A stretch of 64,000 nucleotides of DNA, taken from positions 78,841 to 142,840 of the forward strand of contig ONGJ01000002.1 in NCBI GenBank assembly GCA_900317375.1, in the 5' to 3' direction. The translations under genes and the position numbers were made by a program. The notes under the pieces were generated by a model. That model searched no databases. It worked only from the letters and a program-made list of their open reading frames with translations, and was not told the origin of the DNA. The stretch comes from an uncultured Eubacteriales bacterium. Its GTDB lineage: Bacteria > Bacillota > Clostridia > Oscillospirales > Oscillospiraceae. Of this stretch, positions 43,353-54,104 are shown piece after piece (positions within the stretch are counted from its first letter, which is position 1; each line of letters starts with the position of its first letter).

Positions 43353-43629
43353 CACAAATTTTTCAAGTCCGAAAGGTGTTGTCATACAAATTTAATGTTT
43401 TTCGATATTTTCTGCAATTTCTATCAAAATTTTGAACTTTTTAATCCCCCTAAACGCATTGTCCATTTCCGTCGATTTGCACAATTTTTCTTGTTTTGTC
43501 ATGGTGCAGGCCGAAATATGTATTTTTTTGCGGCATATTTGTATTGAAACCTATTGAGAATTTGTTTATACTGCTGTCAGGCAGGGTTGTTCACCGTTCC
43601 GGGAATGAAATGATATCAGGAGTCTGCTT

Positions 43630-44694
43630 ATGAATCCAAAATATCAGACAGTTGCAGAGGCGTTGAGAGCCGGTATTCAGGATGGCAGATATCAGAAAAC
43701 GCTTCCGACCGAGCAGTCCCTCTGTACACAGTTTCAGGTCAGCCGGCAGACCGTGCGGCAGGCGCTCTCTCTGCTGGAAGCGGAACACCTGATCGATCGC
43801 CGGCAGGGAAGCGGTTCTCATATCCGCGAACGCAGGGAAGCCTCTCCCAGTCAGCGGCTTTCGATCGCAGTTGTCACGACCTATATCAGCGACTATATTT
43901 TCCCCAGTATTCTCCGCGAGATTGAATCGGTCTGTTCCGAAAACAACAGCGCTCCCCTTCTGTTCGCGACCCAGAATCAGTTCTCCAACGAACGGCGGAT
44001 TCTCAAAACGCTGCTCGATATGGACCATCTGGACGGCGTTCTTCTGGAAGGGACGAAAACCGGTCTGCCCAACCCGAACATTCCGCTCTATCATCAGCTT
44101 ATGGAAAAGGGCATCCCGCTCGTGTTCATGCACGGTAATTATGAACAGCTTCCGCACACGCTGTCTGTATTGGATGACAACTATGCCGGGGGACGCATGC
44201 TGACGGAGTATCTGTACAGAAAGGGCCACCGAAAGATTTCCGGTATCTTCAAATATGACGACCTGCAGGGCCGGCAGCGTTTTTCCGGCTATATGGATGC
44301 GCTGCAGAGCTTTGATCTCCCCGTTGAGGACAAAAACATTCTCTGGTACAGCACCGACCAGAAGGAACGCTTCCTGCGCGGCGGTAATGAAGACACGCGC
44401 GCTGCGGAGCTTCTCGCCGGCTGCAGCGCCGTCATCTGCTACAACGATGAGATTGCCGCCATGGTTGTCTCGTATCTGAACAGAACTGGCATGGCCATTC
44501 CCGGAGATGTCGCCGTGGTCAGTTTTGACAACAGCCCTTACAGTGAAATGTCCAGCCCGCGAATCACTTCCCTCTCGCACATGCAGTACAACGTCGGCCG
44601 TGAAGCTGCCGAGCTGCTTTTCTGTCATCTGCGCGGTGAGGCCTGCGAGTCCAGACTGGTTCCGTGGATGCTGGTGGAGAAGGAAAGCAGCTGA
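43630..44694 (+). CDS. araR: AraR-type transcriptional repressor (GntR HTH N-terminus + LacI/GalR-like sugar-binding C-terminus)
   Basis: 354 aa. GntR wHTH (LPTEQSLCTQFQVSRQTVRQALSLLEAEHLIDRRQGSGSHI) fused to a periplasmic-binding-like domain (ISGIF...VICYNDEIA). Divergent from the ara operon. Confidence 0.82.
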   Translation: MNPKYQTVAEALRAGIQDGRYQKTLPTEQSLCTQFQVSRQTVRQALSLLEAEHLIDRRQGSGSHIRERREASPSQRLSIAVVTTYISDYIFPSILREIESVCSENNSAPLLFATQNQFSNERRILKTLLDMDHLDGVLLEGTKTGLPNPNIPLYHQLMEKGIPLVFMHGNYEQLPHTLSVLDDNYAGGRMLTEYLYRKGHRKISGIFKYDDLQGRQRFSGYMDALQSFDLPVEDKNILWYSTDQKERFLRGGNEDTRAAELLAGCSAVICYNDEIAAMVVSYLNRTGMAIPGDVAVVSFDNSPYSEMSSPRITSLSHMQYNVGREAAELLFCHLRGEACESRLVPWMLVEKESS

Positions 44695-44733
44695 GGCAAG
44701 TTGAATCTCTGCCGAAAAGCAATTATAAAAAGC

Positions 44734-44790
44734 AAAACCCGGAGAACCCATTTGGGCGCTCCGGGTTTTGGCACGCGATAAGGGATTCGA
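44734..44790 (-). repeat. 57-nt duplicate of the tRNA-Arg terminator plus the last 22 nt of tRNA-Arg (tRNA 3' fragment at 44769-44790)
   Basis: Matches 44878-44934 at 54 of 57 positions. Two of the three differences are compensatory within the hairpin stem (C/G versus T/A). The hairpin with its TTTT tract also sits where an araR terminator is expected. Confidence 0.85.
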
Positions 44791-44867
44791 CCTGCTCTGT
44801 GGAGCAGGCCGAATCGGGTTGCAAGGCGCCCCCGGCGCCTTGCCAAGTGCCCTCGGGTTCGAATCCC

Positions 44868-44912
44868 CGAGAAAATCAAAATCCGGAGTACCCATTTGGG
44901 CGCTCCGGATTT
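44868..44912 (-). terminator. tRNA-Arg intrinsic terminator
   Basis: Minus strand AAAATCCGGAG-CG-CCCA-AA-TGGG-TA-CTCCGGATTTT followed by GATTTTC. Confidence 0.65.
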
Positions 44913-47709: not shown

Positions 47710-47741
47710 GCAGGAGACGCGATCCGCGTCCCCTGCTTTTT
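47710..47741. terminator. GC hairpin between the lectin-domain gene and copA
   Basis: GCAGGAGACGCG-atc-CGCGTCCCCTGC followed by TTTTT on the plus strand only. The minus-strand version has a G-U in place of the A-C mismatch but no U tract, so orientation and function are ambiguous. Confidence 0.35.
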
Positions 47742-47760
47742 GCCGTTCAGGCCATTCCGG

Positions 47761-49539
47761 TCAGCCGATTTTCTCGACCGCGTAGCCGATATGGCCGCCG
47801 TACATCCCATAGAAATCAATAAGCGGATTCTCACGGCTGTCGTTATAGACCCACTTGCCTCCATGCTTCCAGAGCATGACATAATCCTCGGCGGCACCGT
47901 CACCGCTGTCGGTATAGGAAGGCTCGCCGTTGTCCCAGGGATAGAAGGTGACATTCTCGCCGCTCTCCCAGATGATGTTGCCGTCCTCGCGGTGTGCACC
48001 GATCCAGACGCGGTCGATACCCGCCTGTTCGGCCAGCGCAATGATCTGGTTCATCTCTTCTTCGTTGTTGATGACCGCGAGGAAACCGCCGTGATCATGC
48101 GCGGCCTGCTGGGCCTCAAGCCAGCCCATATCTGCCTTGATAACCTCATAGGTGTGCGGTGCGTTGGGATCGGTCAGCGCCAGCTCGGCCTCGGCCTGCT
48201 GCGCCTGCTGTTCAGCCTGCTGCTGGGCTTCCAGTTCCGCCTGCTGCGCTTCCTGTTCGGCCTGCTGCTGAAGCTGCTGCTCGGACATGATGGCAGAGAT
48301 GTCCATCTCGGTGGTCACCTGCGGATCAACAGTAGGCACCACAATGGTCACGTCCTGCATGGCAGGGTTATCCTGTCTTGCCGAAAAAGCGTTGATCAGG
48401 ATATTGGCAACCACCGCCGCAATCAGCAGAACCGCCAAAAGAAGCAGCACCACAAGGAAGGGACGCTTTTTCTGTTCCGGTTCCTCTTCGGCATTCTGTG
48501 TTTTGGCCGCTCTGGCAGGAGCCTTTCTGCCGCCTTTGCTGGCAACCGTAATCGGTGCGAGCTCCGGGTCTTCCTCTTCCGTCAGAATCGGGATGCCCTT
48601 TTTATTGCTTCCGGGTTCGTACACACGTATCTCCTCCTCCGCTTCAAGCTCTGCCGGGTCTACAGGATCCGGTTCATCCAGGCCGAAATACTCGGCCAGG
48701 CCGCTGTCCTTTTCCTCCGGCACCGGTTTCTTTTCCGGCCGGACAAGACCGGCCTGGGAAAACATCTCATCCTCTGTCTGCACGGTGCTGTCTCCTTCAC
48801 TGCGCACGGATGCGACAATCTCATCCAGATAGTCGTCCTCATCCGCTTCCTTCTCTGCGGCAAGCTCGGCATCCGCCTCACCGGCAATAATCTTCAGCAT
48901 GATCTGTTCGAGATCGCTGAGCTCCTCCTCGCTTTTCTGGAAAATCGCCTCAGCGCCCGATTTTTCACGCAGCAGGCGCTTATCCTCGCAGTAATCCAGC
49001 ATAACGGCCATTTCTTCCGGGTTGCGGTATCGGTCGCCCTCTTTGAAGCGGAGAGCTTTTTCAATGATGTCGCCCAGATGTTTGCCTGCCGCGGCTGGGG
49101 CATAGACCGTCTTGCCGCTCATGCGCATCAGCTGCGCATTGCCGCTCTCGCCTTCAAAGGGGAGCTTTCCTGCGCTGGCGCCGTAATAAAGAATCAGACC
49201 GAGTGCGTACACATCCGACTGCGGGGAGGTCTTGTTGTTCCAGTAGATTTCCGGTGCGATATACGGCAGCTCTTCCTGACTCCAGTCGCTCTTCTTCACC
49301 GGTCCAATAGCAATATTCCCGTTGGGGCTGCGGCTGATGTTTTCCGGGTAGATCCCCCCGTGATATGCCTTATTCCCGGCTTCGGCCTTGACCTGACGCG
49401 CGATTTCAGCAACCAGTTCACAGAGCTCTTTCCGGCTCAGTTCAATCAGATTCTTGCTGATCGCATATTCAGGCTCAAATACATGCTGTTCGATCTTCCG
49501 CACCTCCCGTGCAGGTTGCGAATGCCCCTTACAATTCAA
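47761..49539 (-). CDS. single-pass membrane protein: degenerate Ser/Thr protein kinase C-lobe (pseudokinase) + acidic linker + TM + Gln-rich coiled coil + C-type lectin-like domain
   Basis: 592 aa with an uncertain TTG start. Kinase-like aa 35-185 (YHGGIYPENI in place of HRDxKPxN, no DFG, APE retained in YIAPEIY, SDVYALGLILYY). TM at aa 360-385. CTLD at aa ~461-590 (GW.EAQ, VWIGA, WDNGEPS, KWVYND). Confidence 0.8.
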   Translation of the reverse strand: MNCKGHSQPAREVRKIEQHVFEPEYAISKNLIELSRKELCELVAEIARQVKAEAGNKAYHGGIYPENISRSPNGNIAIGPVKKSDWSQEELPYIAPEIYWNNKTSPQSDVYALGLILYYGASAGKLPFEGESGNAQLMRMSGKTVYAPAAAGKHLGDIIEKALRFKEGDRYRNPEEMAVMLDYCEDKRLLREKSGAEAIFQKSEEELSDLEQIMLKIIAGEADAELAAEKEADEDDYLDEIVASVRSEGDSTVQTEDEMFSQAGLVRPEKKPVPEEKDSGLAEYFGLDEPDPVDPAELEAEEEIRVYEPGSNKKGIPILTEEEDPELAPITVASKGGRKAPARAAKTQNAEEEPEQKKRPFLVVLLLLAVLLIAAVVANILINAFSARQDNPAMQDVTIVVPTVDPQVTTEMDISAIMSEQQLQQQAEQEAQQAELEAQQQAEQQAQQAEAELALTDPNAPHTYEVIKADMGWLEAQQAAHDHGGFLAVINNEEEMNQIIALAEQAGIDRVWIGAHREDGNIIWESGENVTFYPWDNGEPSYTDSGDGAAEDYVMLWKHGGKWVYNDSRENPLIDFYGMYGGHIGYAVEKIG

Positions 49540-49623
49540 TGTATCGTATCACAGCCCTCCCTTTCCCGTCAAGGTTTTTAAAGTCTCAAATCAGAGTCAT
49601 CTGAAAGACAAAAAAAGAAATAC

Positions 49624-49678: not shown

Positions 49679-49754
<76 letters not shown>

Positions 49755-51581: not shown

Positions 51582-51746
51582 TCGCTCCGGAGGCTATTCT
51601 CCGATGAGTCTTGCGAATTCTCTATGGTGCGTTCTTTCAAAAATGTGCGGAAGAGAAACCGGGTCTTCACACCTGTGTTTCTCCTACGCACATTTCTTAT
51701 ACACAATGATTCCCCTGCCTGGTCAATCGCAGCAGCAATCCGTTTT

Positions 51747-53357
51747 TCAGATGCTGTTGATGACACCCTGGATGCCTTCCCGGTCGTAGATCTCGCGCAC
51801 CCAGGAGATTTCATCCCGTATCAGGTCATCGATGACGCGCATGCCCAGCAGTTCCACCGGTGCCCGGTCATCGGTCATGATATGCTCACCGCCCTCACAG
51901 GTCTTAAGGCCGGAAGAAACGAGCATCAGCATGTCCCGCAGTTCCGGATCGGCGCAGAGAGCGACATTCCTCTGAAAGGTTTCCATCGCGCCGGGCTTCA
52001 GAGCGGCGAACAGTTCTCGGTTGGTGCTGTAGCGCACATCCGCTGTCCACACAGACGGGAACACGGCGCAGATGGTGTCGGACAGGTACTGCGTAATGCT
52101 GCCTTCCTCCTTATCGCCGCGCATGTTCATGTTCACCACCATGACGCCGTCCTCCTTCAGATGCGCACGCACCATTGTAAAGAACTCCAGAGAGGACATC
52201 TGAAACGGGATGGTGATATCCTGATACGCATCCACCATGATGACGTCATACTGTTTATCCACAGCGTTCAGATACGCACGCCCGTCATAGGTGGTAACGT
52301 TCATGTCTTCCGGCATGGCGAAATACTCATGTGCGAGCCGGCTGATCTTCCCGTCAATCTCAACGCCCTCGATATGCATGGCCGGGTAATAGTGTGCACA
52401 CTGACTGCCGTAGGTGCCCGTACCCATCCCCAGTATCAGCATCTCGAAGGGTTTTTGATCGGCCGTCTTTTCCGCAATGCCGGCCATCATCGGCGCTGCC
52501 ATGGCATAGTCATAGTACATGCCGGTCAGGGATGCATCCTTGCGCATGATGGACTGGACACCGAAAAGGACGTTGGTCGAAAGAATGACGCTGTCGTCCG
52601 TTTCCTCCACCTGAAGATAGTTGTAGATCGACTCTCCCTCATAAAGCAGGTCTTGCTTCCAAAAGGCAAAATTCGAGCGCCAGCCCAGCACGCAGCTCAG
52701 CAGGAACAGGAGGATTGCCGCGATGGACAGGCCCGGCTTTTTCCGAACACTGATGAAATACAGCAATGCCAGAACAAGCAGAATCCCTGCAAATATCAGG
52801 AAGCTGATCGAGGTTCCGACCGCAGGGATGGTGAGGAAGGTCGGGACAAAGGTGCCGATGATACTGCCCACGGTGTTGGCCGCACCGAGCATGCCCACGA
52901 TACCGGCGTTGTCCTCCAGGTTATCCATCGTGTACTTGGCAAGCGACGGCGTTACGGTTCCGAGCAGAAAGAGCGGAAACACAAAGATGACCATGCAGGC
53001 CGCAAAGGCCGCCCAGATCAGGTAGTTGGCATTCACGGTAAAGATCAGGACCGCCGAGATCCCGAGGATCATATACTTGCCCAGAACGGGAATCATCGCG
53101 ATCCATACGGCTGCGATCAGGATGCGGCGGTAGAGTCTGTCCGGGTTCGGGTCCCGGTCCGCCGTGCGCCCGCCGTAGATGTTTCCCAGCGCCATGGCGA
53201 TCATGATCGTACCGATAATGATGGTCCAGACGATCTGAGACGAAGAAAAATAAGGTGCCAGCAGACGGCTTGCCCCGAGTTCGACGGCCATGACCGACAT
53301 GCCGGCAAAGAACTCCGTCAGATACAGATAGATTTTGTTTTTCAGAAGATGCGGCAT
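51747..53357 (-). CDS. fused membrane (MFS-like) / spermidine synthase-like protein
   Basis: 536 aa. ~7 N-terminal TM helices, then an aminopropyltransferase-like Rossmann domain (MLILGMGTGT...GVEIDG...VIMVDAYQD). Confidence 0.85.
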   Translation of the reverse strand: MPHLLKNKIYLYLTEFFAGMSVMAVELGASRLLAPYFSSSQIVWTIIIGTIMIAMALGNIYGGRTADRDPNPDRLYRRILIAAVWIAMIPVLGKYMILGISAVLIFTVNANYLIWAAFAACMVIFVFPLFLLGTVTPSLAKYTMDNLEDNAGIVGMLGAANTVGSIIGTFVPTFLTIPAVGTSISFLIFAGILLVLALLYFISVRKKPGLSIAAILLFLLSCVLGWRSNFAFWKQDLLYEGESIYNYLQVEETDDSVILSTNVLFGVQSIMRKDASLTGMYYDYAMAAPMMAGIAEKTADQKPFEMLILGMGTGTYGSQCAHYYPAMHIEGVEIDGKISRLAHEYFAMPEDMNVTTYDGRAYLNAVDKQYDVIMVDAYQDITIPFQMSSLEFFTMVRAHLKEDGVMVVNMNMRGDKEEGSITQYLSDTICAVFPSVWTADVRYSTNRELFAALKPGAMETFQRNVALCADPELRDMLMLVSSGLKTCEGGEHIMTDDRAPVELLGMRVIDDLIRDEISWVREIYDREGIQGVINSI

Positions 53358-53453
53358 ACGGCCTCCTGCAGCTGCGTATCAACGTATCGGACAAACAAAA
53401 AACCCGGCCCCTGCCCTCTTCCGAGGGAAAGGGCTGGGTTCTGTTCTGTCTGC

Positions 53454-54104
53454 TTACCAGAGGTCGACGGAGCCGGCCTCGTCACCCTTGACCCAGTAGG
53501 CCTTGTTGACGTCCACGCGGACATAAACCTTATCGGCCTCACCGATCTTGGCAAGAATTGCTTCCGGTGTGATCTCGCCGCCCATGGGGGACTGAATCAC
53601 CACTTCGGGCTTCTTCGGCAGAACCTTCTTGACGGCCCCGGCTGCGGCAGCACCGGCAGCCTTGGTGGTCTTTTTGACCTTCTTCTCCGCCTTGGCGGCA
53701 ACGGCCTTTGCCTTGGTGGTGGTCTCAACGGCTTTCGCCTTGGCCTTGGCAGCCTTCGCCTTGGTCTCGGCAACTTTTTCTTTGGTCTCGGCAACCTTTT
53801 CCTTGGTTTCGGCAACCTTCTTCTCAGCCTTTTCTTTGGTCTCGATGGCGCCGTTCACAACCGCCTCGGCCTTCTTCTCGACCGCTTCGATCTTCTCCTC
53901 GACCTTCTTTTCGGCCGCCTGAACCTTCTTCACTTCAGGCTCAATGACTTCGCCGTATACTTCCTTCACCTTGTCGATAATCTTCTGGCTGGTCTTCATG
54001 CGTCCGGCTTCAACGGAAGCAACTGCTGAACTGCTGACGCCGATGGTTTTGGCAAATGCGGCCTGTGAGAGCTTGGCTTTTTCACGGACTTCTTTCAGAT
54101 TCAT
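53454..54104 (-). CDS. XRE-type HTH protein with a histone H1-like Lys/Ala/Glu repeat region and a conserved C-terminal domain
   Basis: ORF 53454..54164 trimmed to MNLKEVREKAKLSQAAFAKTIGVSSSAVASVEAG (HTH_3-like). Central VAETKEKVAETKEKVAETKAKAAKAKAKA. C-terminal VVIQSPMGGEITPEAILAKIGEADKVYVRVDVNKAYWV. Confidence 0.78.
   Translation of the reverse strand: MNLKEVREKAKLSQAAFAKTIGVSSSAVASVEAGRMKTSQKIIDKVKEVYGEVIEPEVKKVQAAEKKVEEKIEAVEKKAEAVVNGAIETKEKAEKKVAETKEKVAETKEKVAETKAKAAKAKAKAVETTTKAKAVAAKAEKKVKKTTKAAGAAAAGAVKKVLPKKPEVVIQSPMGGEITPEAILAKIGEADKVYVRVDVNKAYWVKGDEAGSVDLW
53761..53823 (-). repeat. 3 x 21-nt in-frame tandem repeat (encodes VAETKEK units)
   Basis: Plus strand TTGGTCTCGGCAACTTTTTCT / TTGGTCTCGGCAACCTTTTCC / TTGGTTTCGGCAACCTTCTTC. 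Confidence 0.85.

Follow-up and report, generated by a model that had tools for sequence, protein, structure and literature searches.

PASTA-type Hanks kinases (PknB, PrkC, StkP, Stk1) consist of an N-terminal kinase-fold domain, a juxtamembrane linker, one transmembrane (TM) helix and an ectodomain that binds glycan or cell wall. Among bacterial pseudokinases, MviN (MurJ) of M. tuberculosis is a membrane protein with a non-ATP-binding pseudokinase and a carbohydrate-binding domain, and phosphorylation of its tail by PknB recruits FhaA (PMC12599244). EssB/YukC is a bitopic scaffold of the Firmicute type VIIb secretion system, whose N-terminal pseudokinase has all catalytic motifs degraded and an attenuated activation loop (PMC12599244). 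A recent atlas of bacterial Ser/Thr kinases (bSTK) adds seven pseudokinase families, ActPs1-3, DLHK, GLW, DYD and CP1, which are conserved and Hanks-derived, and many of which are membrane-associated (bioRxiv 10.1101/2025.01.12.632604; PMC12599244). The described bacterial pseudokinases, namely these seven families, EssB, MviN, SidJ and SelO, are all two-lobed. The C-lobe of a kinase has nevertheless given rise to a docking domain, KIND, and the KIND of Spir binds the FSI peptide of formin (PMC11231147). Animal type II lectin receptors of the CD23 and DC-SIGN/MGL class are built of a cytoplasmic tail, a TM helix, a neck and a C-terminal long-form C-type lectin-like domain (CTLD). In this work, we describe a minus-strand gene from a 64,000-nucleotide (nt) stretch of an uncultured Eubacteriales bacterium (GCA_900317375.1, contig ONGJ01000002.1, positions 78,841 to 142,840; hereafter the window), whose product is unusual in two respects: its kinase C-lobe is autonomous, and its Ca2+-type C-type lectin is free of disulfides. 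Both lie within a modular superfamily. Amino acids (aa) are numbered from the TTG start, and the coordinates of all features are collected in Table 1.

The cytoplasmic domain is the C-lobe alone of a Hanks-type (PknB/StkP-like) kinase. Its Pfam Pkinase match is restricted to profile positions 162-245 of 263 and reaches 26.8 bits, below the cutoff of 31.7, PK_Tyr_Ser-Thr is borderline (23.2 bits, cutoff 23.1), and the NCBIfam model PknB_PASTA_kin (NF033483) matches aa 93-227 on profile positions 174-304 with E 7.9e-15 and 54.9 bits against a cutoff of 450. A phmmer search against the PDB aligned aa 22-183 with residues 101-261 of PknA, and also with StkP; a profile of the family’s N-terminal domain matched StkP at E 4.7e-12, with R-G-G lying over H-R-D and ‘IaiGP’ over DFG. 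AlphaFold2 (AF2) models were computed from domain alignments of family members for aa 13-228 and for the lectin domain (aa 455-592), and both were compared with the PDB by Foldseek. The first has a mean predicted local distance difference test score (pLDDT) of 84.6, with values above 89 at model residues 11-170, and contains helix E, two short strands and helices EF, F, G (helical at model residues 123-128), H and I, followed by two further helices at lower confidence. Its top Foldseek match is PknA (4x3f; E 2e-8; TM-score 0.66 by query (TMq) and 0.52 by target (TMt); about 177 aligned columns), and PknB and Stk1 come next. A TMt of about 0.5 is the value expected of a half-kinase.

The module is laid out as a short N-terminal cap, helix E, a degenerate catalytic loop, a short activation segment and helices EF, F, G, H and I. 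Together with helices E to I, the core residues of a kinase C-lobe are retained: the APE Glu (E97), the subdomain IX Asp (D109, within SDVY at aa 108-111) and the subdomain XI Arg (R170) are 99-100% conserved among the 108 divergent representatives used for residue conservation, and P65 and N67 of the catalytic loop are conserved among them as well. What defines an active kinase is missing. At most 34 residues precede helix E, which leaves neither Gly-rich loop, VAIK Lys nor C-helix Glu; HGG and IGP stand where HRD with its catalytic Asp and DFG with its metal-binding Asp would be; and the activation segment after NIAIGPV is about 10 residues shorter than that of StkP and has no TxT pair. Since the N-lobe, the catalytic Asp and the DFG Asp are all missing, the protein is, as judged from its sequence, incapable of phosphorylation or canonical ATP binding. 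A split kinase completed by a separate N-lobe protein was rejected, as such a protein could not supply the catalytic Asp residues, which are C-lobe positions. The family also has conserved residues of its own in helix G (R139 in 99%, M140 in 87% and G142 in 94% of the representatives), and P148 is a further family-specific conserved residue of the cytoplasmic part.

On the outside, the protein has a genuine C-type lectin fold. Pfam Lectin_C scores 28.4 bits (E 3e-6), above its cutoff of 22.6, and the family’s lectin profile matches single CTLDs of Endo180, the mannose receptor (MR) and CD23 at E 1e-10 to 1e-12. The AF2 model, with a pLDDT of 93.9 and a predicted TM-score (pTM) of 0.89, shows the canonical two-helix, two-sheet CTLD layout, and Foldseek returned CD23, CL-K1 (collectin-11), MGL, Endo180 and MR (E about 1e-7, TMq 0.71-0.74). 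Cys occurs in the protein at aa 3, 40 and 184 only, and hence nowhere in the ectodomain; both canonical disulfides (C1-C4 and C2-C3) are missing, and Y553 sits where C2 would be. Ectodomain Cys are likewise absent from 58 family members, about half. More distant members hold Cys in helix alpha1 (‘AQxxC’) and strand beta5 (‘GYVCEF’), which are the canonical C1 and C4, and this speaks for an origin of the family in a standard CTLD that later lost its disulfides.

The positions that correspond to the principal Ca2+ site have been kept as well, one of them with an exchange. Among the 121 family members surveyed for lectin motifs, the EPN/QPD equivalent reads EPS in 102 and EPT in 12, and the WND equivalent reads (x)YND in about 105, with D567 invariant. 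By CTLD motif, the invariant E551-D552 would correspond to E193/D194 of MBP-A; D544 and D547, in a loop four residues longer, are also invariant. All five principal Ca2+-site positions (E539, S/T541, E551, N566, D567) are conserved family-wide, with Ser/Thr replacing the Asn of EPN. Ca2+ binding by the ectodomain is thus likely on motif evidence, and glycan binding is plausible. A variable protein of a diversity-generating retroelement (DGR), some of which adopt the C-type-lectin fold, was rejected: the C-terminus is highly conserved, with a ratio of nonsynonymous to synonymous substitution rates (dN/dS) of 0.057 (all such ratios were obtained against L081, the locus of a relative 84% identical to the window protein), and no reverse-transcriptase-like gene recurs among the conserved neighbours of 31 related loci (L001-L031).

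Between the two domains, the degree of conservation varies. The amphipathic helix that follows the kinase module has six residues invariant in alignment A1 (F200, K202, L207, E211, M214, I217) and a dN/dS of 0.065. The acidic linker evolves faster (dN/dS 0.11), but embeds short motifs in which L327 and P329 are invariant and P317, L319 and P325 are at least 90% conserved, whereas T320 shows no conservation in distant members. R359 and P360 are conserved at the TM helix, which has a dN/dS of 0.025, and as KKR precedes this helix, the positive-inside rule leads us to infer an N-in, C-out topology.

Most of this architecture had been anticipated. The original prediction, made from the window’s letters alone, proposed a cytoplasmic kinase C-lobe without N-lobe, with degenerate HRD and DFG positions and no possible kinase activity, one TM helix and an extracellular C-type lectin; profiles, models and the family survey agree with it on each of these points, and the motifs that it quoted are all found at the residues it gave. 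Two details need restricting. The absence of all canonical Cys is correct for the window copy, but distant family members keep those of C1 and C4, and the proposed coiled-coil neck does correspond to a Q/A/E-rich stretch, but one confined to a close subclade and absent in distant members. We regard the architecture and the catalytic inactivity as established with high confidence.

The same half-kinase recurs in a whole family. Among 5.8 billion proteins, a homologue search found 126 relatives, of which almost all are 520-600 aa long and cover 95-100% of the window open reading frame (ORF), and a family-profile search among 1.84 billion cluster representatives returned 123 at E <= 1e-30, in which the match nearly always starts at residue 1-20 and is followed by one TM helix and a lectin; about 100 clusters at 50% identity have this architecture in common. 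In all 120 retrieved homologues surveyed for the catalytic loop, its equivalent reads x(H/R/N)GG(I/V/L)(Y/F)P(E/D/Q)N(I/L) and has no more than 63 residues ahead of it, and the HRD-Asp column holds G, N, A, S or C but Asp in none of the 108 divergent representatives. An N-lobe is absent throughout, from the 120-plus homologues and from the approximately 100 clusters alike. Three proteins with 50-135 extra N-terminal residues (P0237, P0249, P0230) were considered as full kinase-plus-lectin ancestors and rejected, since their extensions are acidic low-complexity tails rather than N-lobes, and the HGG motif is kept. In 185,579 species genomes, full-length relatives were limited to Oscillospiraceae, Ruminococcaceae and ‘Clostridiales’ metagenome-assembled genomes (MAGs) of gut and rumen (L001-L031), apart from two records with a doubtful Bacteroidaceae label; all other matches were ordinary Hanks kinases, via their C-lobes. 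The dN/dS is 0.038 across the half-kinase and 0.068 across aa 13-592, and the GC content of the gene equals that of the window. The gene thus is functional, is kept by strong purifying selection and belongs to a conserved family.

How, then, does this protein relate to the systems described above? The PASTA-type kinases are the nearest relatives of its cytoplasmic domain in both sequence and structure, and the order of domains is the same. Unlike them, the window protein lacks the N-lobe, the Asp of both HRD and DFG, the TxT pair and the PASTA repeats (no PASTA match in Pfam), and it belongs neither to Pkinase nor to the PASTA kinases. MviN is the best functional precedent, as it too places a cytoplasmic pseudokinase scaffold and a carbohydrate-binding domain in one membrane protein; it is, however, actinobacterial and bilobal, dimerises via its N-lobe and sits on a MurJ flippase, and its sugar-binding domain is not described as a CTLD. 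With a single TM helix, no N-lobe and no MurJ/MVIN domain detected by Pfam, the window protein is not MviN/ActPs3. EssB/YukC resembles it in being bitopic, with an N-terminal, degraded cytoplasmic pseudokinase that acts as a scaffold, but EssB keeps the two-lobed fold and is encoded in type VII secretion system (T7SS) loci. The window protein does neither: no T7SS genes lie near the gene, and no YukC/EssB match was found in Pfam, NCBIfam or by phmmer against the PDB.

The likeness to KIND is of another kind, in that both are autonomous, non-catalytic modules made from the kinase C-lobe alone. KIND is eukaryotic, cytosolic and unlinked to TM helix or lectin, whereas the present module is part of a bacterial membrane protein. 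Pfam-A contains a KIND model, and a Pfam scan gave no KIND-family match at E <= 1; the best 60 matches of a PDB listing at E <= 10 were all kinases. As the nearest relatives are bacterial PknB-like kinases, the module has an independent origin and is an analogue of KIND. On its outer side, the protein follows the order of parts of the animal type II lectin receptors and shares the EPS/EPT variant of EPN with human CD23 (EPT). It differs from the animal proteins in being bacterial and disulfide-free, in having 22-26% identity to their CTLDs, and in carrying a kinase C-lobe instead of a short signalling tail. In short, the protein parallels KIND, MviN/ActPs3 and EssB without belonging to any of these families.

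The families of the bSTK atlas are all described with N-lobe motifs (VAIK variants, C-helix), which the window family lacks. Neither the atlas nor the accompanying review (PMC12599244) mentions lectin-linked or truncated families, and full-text literature searches found no description of a lectin-linked, N-lobe-less or C-lobe-only bacterial pseudokinase. The family was probably missed by the atlas, given its sub-gathering Pkinase score and its occurrence in MAGs. The original prediction had been aware of no characterised bacterial example of such a receptor; this was too strict, because MviN already couples a pseudokinase with a carbohydrate-binding domain and EssB/YukC is a second bitopic scaffold. 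What the family adds is evidence that bacteria, too, have half of the kinase fold as an autonomous and evolvable module, in the way that animals have KIND. It offers a catalysis-free system for probing the docking surfaces of the kinase C-lobe (helix G, activation-segment platform), and its disulfide-free CTLDs could serve as expressible lectin scaffolds. There is also an immediate gain for annotation, as every named database entry of the family is at present a ‘hypothetical protein’.

What the module is joined to bears on its function. The N-lobe-less module, always N-terminal and followed by one TM helix, is found with several kinds of ectodomain: three to nine bacterial SH3 domains (SH3_3; P0228, P0247, P0256, P0266), SH3_3 and Lectin_C together (P0251, P0258), or Listeria-Bacteroides repeats (Flg_new; P0261). 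Each fusion partner either faces the cell envelope or spans it. As SH3b domains are known for targeting peptidoglycan, the swapping of SH3b ectodomains moves the probable ligand towards the cell’s own wall, in parallel to the PASTA repeats of the module’s closest kinase relatives. This suggests that the ligand may be the bacterium’s own envelope rather than a host or dietary glycan. Two further fusions, each with a single representative, join the module to an FtsX-like permease domain (P0186, 377 aa) and to a GerA germinant-receptor domain (P0264, 460 aa, in which the half-kinase ends at profile position 114). They may be assembly or gene-call chimeras; if true, they would connect the module with wall-hydrolase control and germination.

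Taken together, we favour a non-catalytic receptor or scaffold linking a ligand at the envelope with a partner in the cytoplasm, most probably one of the Hanks kinase network, and, reasoning largely by analogy, we give this reading a probability of about 0.5. The ectodomain would bind a carbohydrate-containing envelope ligand in a Ca2+-dependent manner, most probably a glycopolymer of the bacterium’s own cell wall. The half-kinase would act as a docking module comparable to the eukaryotic KIND domain and to the MviN and EssB pseudokinases, and a cytoplasmic partner would bind to its helix-G face (R139-M140-x-G142), to the post-kinase helix and to the motifs of the linker. The likeliest partner would belong to the Hanks kinase/phosphatase network, that is, a PASTA-type kinase or its substrates or adaptors, which would be recruited, sequestered or positioned when the ligand clusters or localises the receptor at the envelope. 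Helix G is a substrate and dimer docking surface of Hanks kinases and mediates, for example, the front-to-front PknB dimer for trans-autophosphorylation, and we infer that the corresponding segment is a docking surface here too. The coupling to lectin or SH3b suggests an unrecognised layer of envelope or glycan sensing in the abundant and poorly studied Oscillospiraceae of gut and rumen.

A more specific version goes further, and we hold it only tentatively. The half-kinase may be a prokaryotic, independently evolved KIND-like C-lobe docking module with interchangeable envelope-binding ectodomains, which would dock via helix G on the front face of a PASTA/Hanks kinase or on its substrates. If true, it would represent a new, non-catalytic layer of Ser/Thr-kinase regulation tied to cell-wall or glycan status.

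Several points weigh against a receptor or scaffold of the Hanks network. The change of EPN to EPS/EPT may abolish sugar binding, by analogy with human CD23, the best structural match of the ectodomain, which carries EPT and binds Ca2+ while sugar binding is undetectable, a loss ascribed to the Asn-to-Thr change (PMC6791321). The SH3b-based case for a self-envelope ligand is indirect. No kinase, phosphatase (PP2C) or FHA gene is adjacent in the window or in the 31 related loci, and the 64 kb window holds neither a paralogue nor a genuine Hanks kinase, phosphatase or FHA gene, so that the tie to Hanks signalling draws on homology and analogy. The post-kinase helices are modelled at low confidence (pLDDT 52-70), and the surface that an N-lobe normally buries would need some other cover. 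Since T320 is not kept by distant members, the family as a whole gives no support to an MviN-like phospho-Thr/FHA switch.

Foremost among the alternatives is the view of the original prediction, namely a sensor of environmental or host glycans (dietary, mucin or microbial) whose dead half-kinase relays the signal by protein-protein interaction. The limitation of the family to gut and rumen Oscillospiraceae, a long-form CTLD like the carbohydrate-recognition domains of mannose receptor, CD23 and collectins with its Ca2+ site conserved, and a type II topology with a neck that recalls animal lectin receptors all speak for it. We consider it somewhat unlikely, since the same cytoplasmic module is joined to cell-wall-type SH3b domains, also in combination with a lectin, and EPS/EPT may not support sugar binding. 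Nor is a carbohydrate-utilisation locus linked to the gene: a sugar ABC transporter does occur further downstream in the window, past a copper ATPase, a tRNA and another ORF, but no equivalent was seen among the compared neighbours of related loci.

A surface adhesin or anchor, in which the lectin would attach the cell or hold the protein at the wall while the half-kinase served as a folded plug or oligomerisation domain without signalling partner, would explain why no partner gene is linked and why the ectodomains of the superfamily are all binding modules. It is the more doubtful because no other domain of the protein is as constrained as the cytoplasmic one (dN/dS 0.038), and the invariant, family-specific helix G residues and the conserved linker motifs are ill-suited to a passive plug.

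Non-canonical enzymatic activity of the SidJ or SelO kind is highly improbable. Certain bacterial pseudokinases have indeed gained new chemistry (PMC12599244), and P65 and N67 are kept in the catalytic loop of the family; the nucleotide-binding N-lobe, however, is wholly missing, and no member has an acidic catalytic residue at the HRD or DFG position. Last comes the 5’-truncated pseudogene that the original prediction itself had named as an alternative. It would be a normal receptor kinase in decay, cut off by rearrangement at the neighbouring initiator tRNA gene: the short distance of about 140-175 nt between the start and this divergent tRNA, an upstream context unlike that of the relatives and a weak or ambiguous start codon and ribosome-binding site would fit, yet it is hardly credible when the ORF of 592 aa is intact, the longer N-termini of some relatives are low-complexity tails, the relatives are uniformly N-lobe-less and dN/dS is 0.04-0.06 in both domains.

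Table 1. Positions of the gene and of the features discussed in the text (window coordinates; aa, amino acids).
Feature	Position	Strand	Basis or remark
Whole ORF, bitopic membrane protein	47761..49539	-	592 aa counted from the TTG; ends with the stop codon at 47761-47763
Match to a sigma-70-like promoter, TG-extended TTGACG-18 nt-TACGAT	49543..49572	-	consensus match alone
Alternative start GTG (V13)	49501..49503	-	start of P0001 and of most close relatives
C-lobe-only pseudokinase module (aa 13-190)	48970..49503	-	profiles, AF2, Foldseek
Catalytic-loop equivalent YHGGIYPENI (aa 59-68), in place of HRDxKPxN	49336..49365	-	sequence
DFG equivalent NIAIGPV (aa 75-81)	49297..49317	-	sequence, StkP alignment
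APE motif (aa 95-97), kept	49249..49257	-	conservation
Helix G segment NAQLMRMSG (aa 134-142) with family-specific R139-M140-x-G142	49114..49140	-	conservation, AF2
Post-kinase amphipathic helix AEAIFQKSEEELSDLEQIMLKIIAG (aa 196-220), conserved	48880..48954	-	alignment, AF2
Acidic low-complexity cytoplasmic linker (aa 221-355)	48475..48879	-	varies in length and sequence
Linker linear motifs RVYEP ... IPILTEExxPELAP (aa 303-331)	48547..48633	-	alignment
Single TM helix (aa 359-385), preceded by KKR	48385..48465	-	sequence
Extracellular neck (aa 386-455)	48175..48384	-	close subclade only
Q/A/E-rich stretch in neck (aa 417-449)	48193-48291	-	sequence; originally predicted to be a coiled coil
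C-type lectin-like domain (aa 456-592), long-form, Cys-free	47764..48174	-	Pfam, AF2, Foldseek
EPS (aa 539-541), equivalent of EPN/QPD Ca2+/sugar motif	47917..47925	-	family alignment
E551-D552, equivalent of ‘ED(C)’ Ca2+ ligand after long loop	47884..47889	-	invariant
N566-D567 of WVYND, equivalent of WND	47839..47844	-	family alignment

The 5’ end of the gene is less certain than its architecture. The coordinates of the ORF as first given are exact, but the real start may be GTG 49503 instead of TTG 49539. P0001, which is 99% identical, and most close relatives start at the position of V13 (MRKIEQHVFEPEY), aa 1-12 have a dN/dS of about 1.4 (from few sites), and the promoter match predicts a transcript start at about 49536, i.e., downstream of the TTG. 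The ATG of L081, however, falls on the TTG in the alignment. The conclusion on architecture is the same with either start, as at most 34 residues precede helix E in both cases. The tRNA-fMet predicted about 140 nt upstream is indeed present, as a divergently oriented tRNA-Met(CAT) gene at 49679-49754 (+), 139 nt from the TTG; its C1:A72 mismatch and GGG/CCC anticodon stem (three G:C pairs) identify it as an initiator tRNA. A riboswitch or leader RNA upstream of the gene was rejected, as the RNA-element search detected nothing but this tRNA there.

A plus-strand ORF at 47740-49581 (613 aa) runs antisense to the entire gene and exceeds it in length. It is a composition artefact and no gene, a shadow of the minus frame, which holds the homology and a dN/dS of about 0.07. 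Counterpart shadow ORFs in related loci mislead gene calling by longest ORF.

The gene neighbourhood was compared between the window, the 31 related loci and, as closer relatives, L081 and L082. A copper P-type ATPase lies downstream of the gene and is common to the close relatives L001, L081 and L082. On the upstream side, the window has the tRNA-fMet, a flavin-reductase/rubredoxin protein (flavoredoxin) and an RNase_T exonuclease, and this side is variable. L081 and L082 carry a cation diffusion facilitator (CDF) transporter there, while about 20 of the 31 distant loci carry a beta-CASP/RMMBL gene of the metallo-beta-lactamase fold, ribonuclease-like and of about 535 aa (L001:8315-9922), as the next gene upstream and in the same orientation, about 70-150 nt away. 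The tRNA-fMet hence marks a synteny break relative to the related loci. The placement of the beta-CASP gene holds among relatives just 31-40% identical; it was treated as taxon synteny and rejected as a functional partner, being absent from the window and from the closer relatives L081 and L082. Two long window ORFs on either side of the region, at 43591-44895 (-; 434 aa) and 51624-54029 (+; 801 aa), have no Pfam match at E <= 0.1.

Several minor observations concern the databases. L003 and L027 are titled ‘Bacteroidaceae bacterium’ yet carry an Oscillospiraceae-type family member. In L003, the beta-CASP gene also lies directly upstream of it, and L027 has a gene of a cluster of about 1340 aa sharing an RNase_T exonuclease domain (presumably PolC), as in Oscillospiraceae loci; the Bacteroidaceae label is probably a binning error. 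Precomputed Pfam annotation places PF28211.1 on the family members P0028, P0079 and P0097, which may be a new family covering part of the window-type protein.

Other kinase-like proteins were met outside the family. A 1044 aa bitopic protein of a Faecousia sp. MAG (L061:9389-12523) has a two-lobed, atypical kinase-like domain with KYIVKV, YVDLKPEN and GDLGF (Pfam Pkinase 50 bits on profile positions 85-204 only), a similar acidic linker, a TM helix and an fn3/Ig-like ectodomain; compared with the window protein, the helix-G region is missing from it. It was rejected as a full-length counterpart, as the identity of 37% covers aa 93-181 only, its ectodomain is of the fn3 type and it has no helix-G motif; it is a member of another uncharacterised Oscillospiraceae receptor-kinase-like family. 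Seven further proteins from outside the window (P0147, P0142, P0171, P0191, P0197, P0223, P0226) have one full HRD-containing kinase domain each, with Pfam Pkinase scores of 210-228 bits for P0147 and P0142, and the C-terminal end of P0142 is a DUF285/BspA-type leucine-rich repeat region. In each of the seven, one to three extra C-lobe-like stretches follow the kinase at intervals of about 160-230 aa, a spacing too short for complete kinases, which suggests tandem C-lobe-only repeats behind an active kinase.

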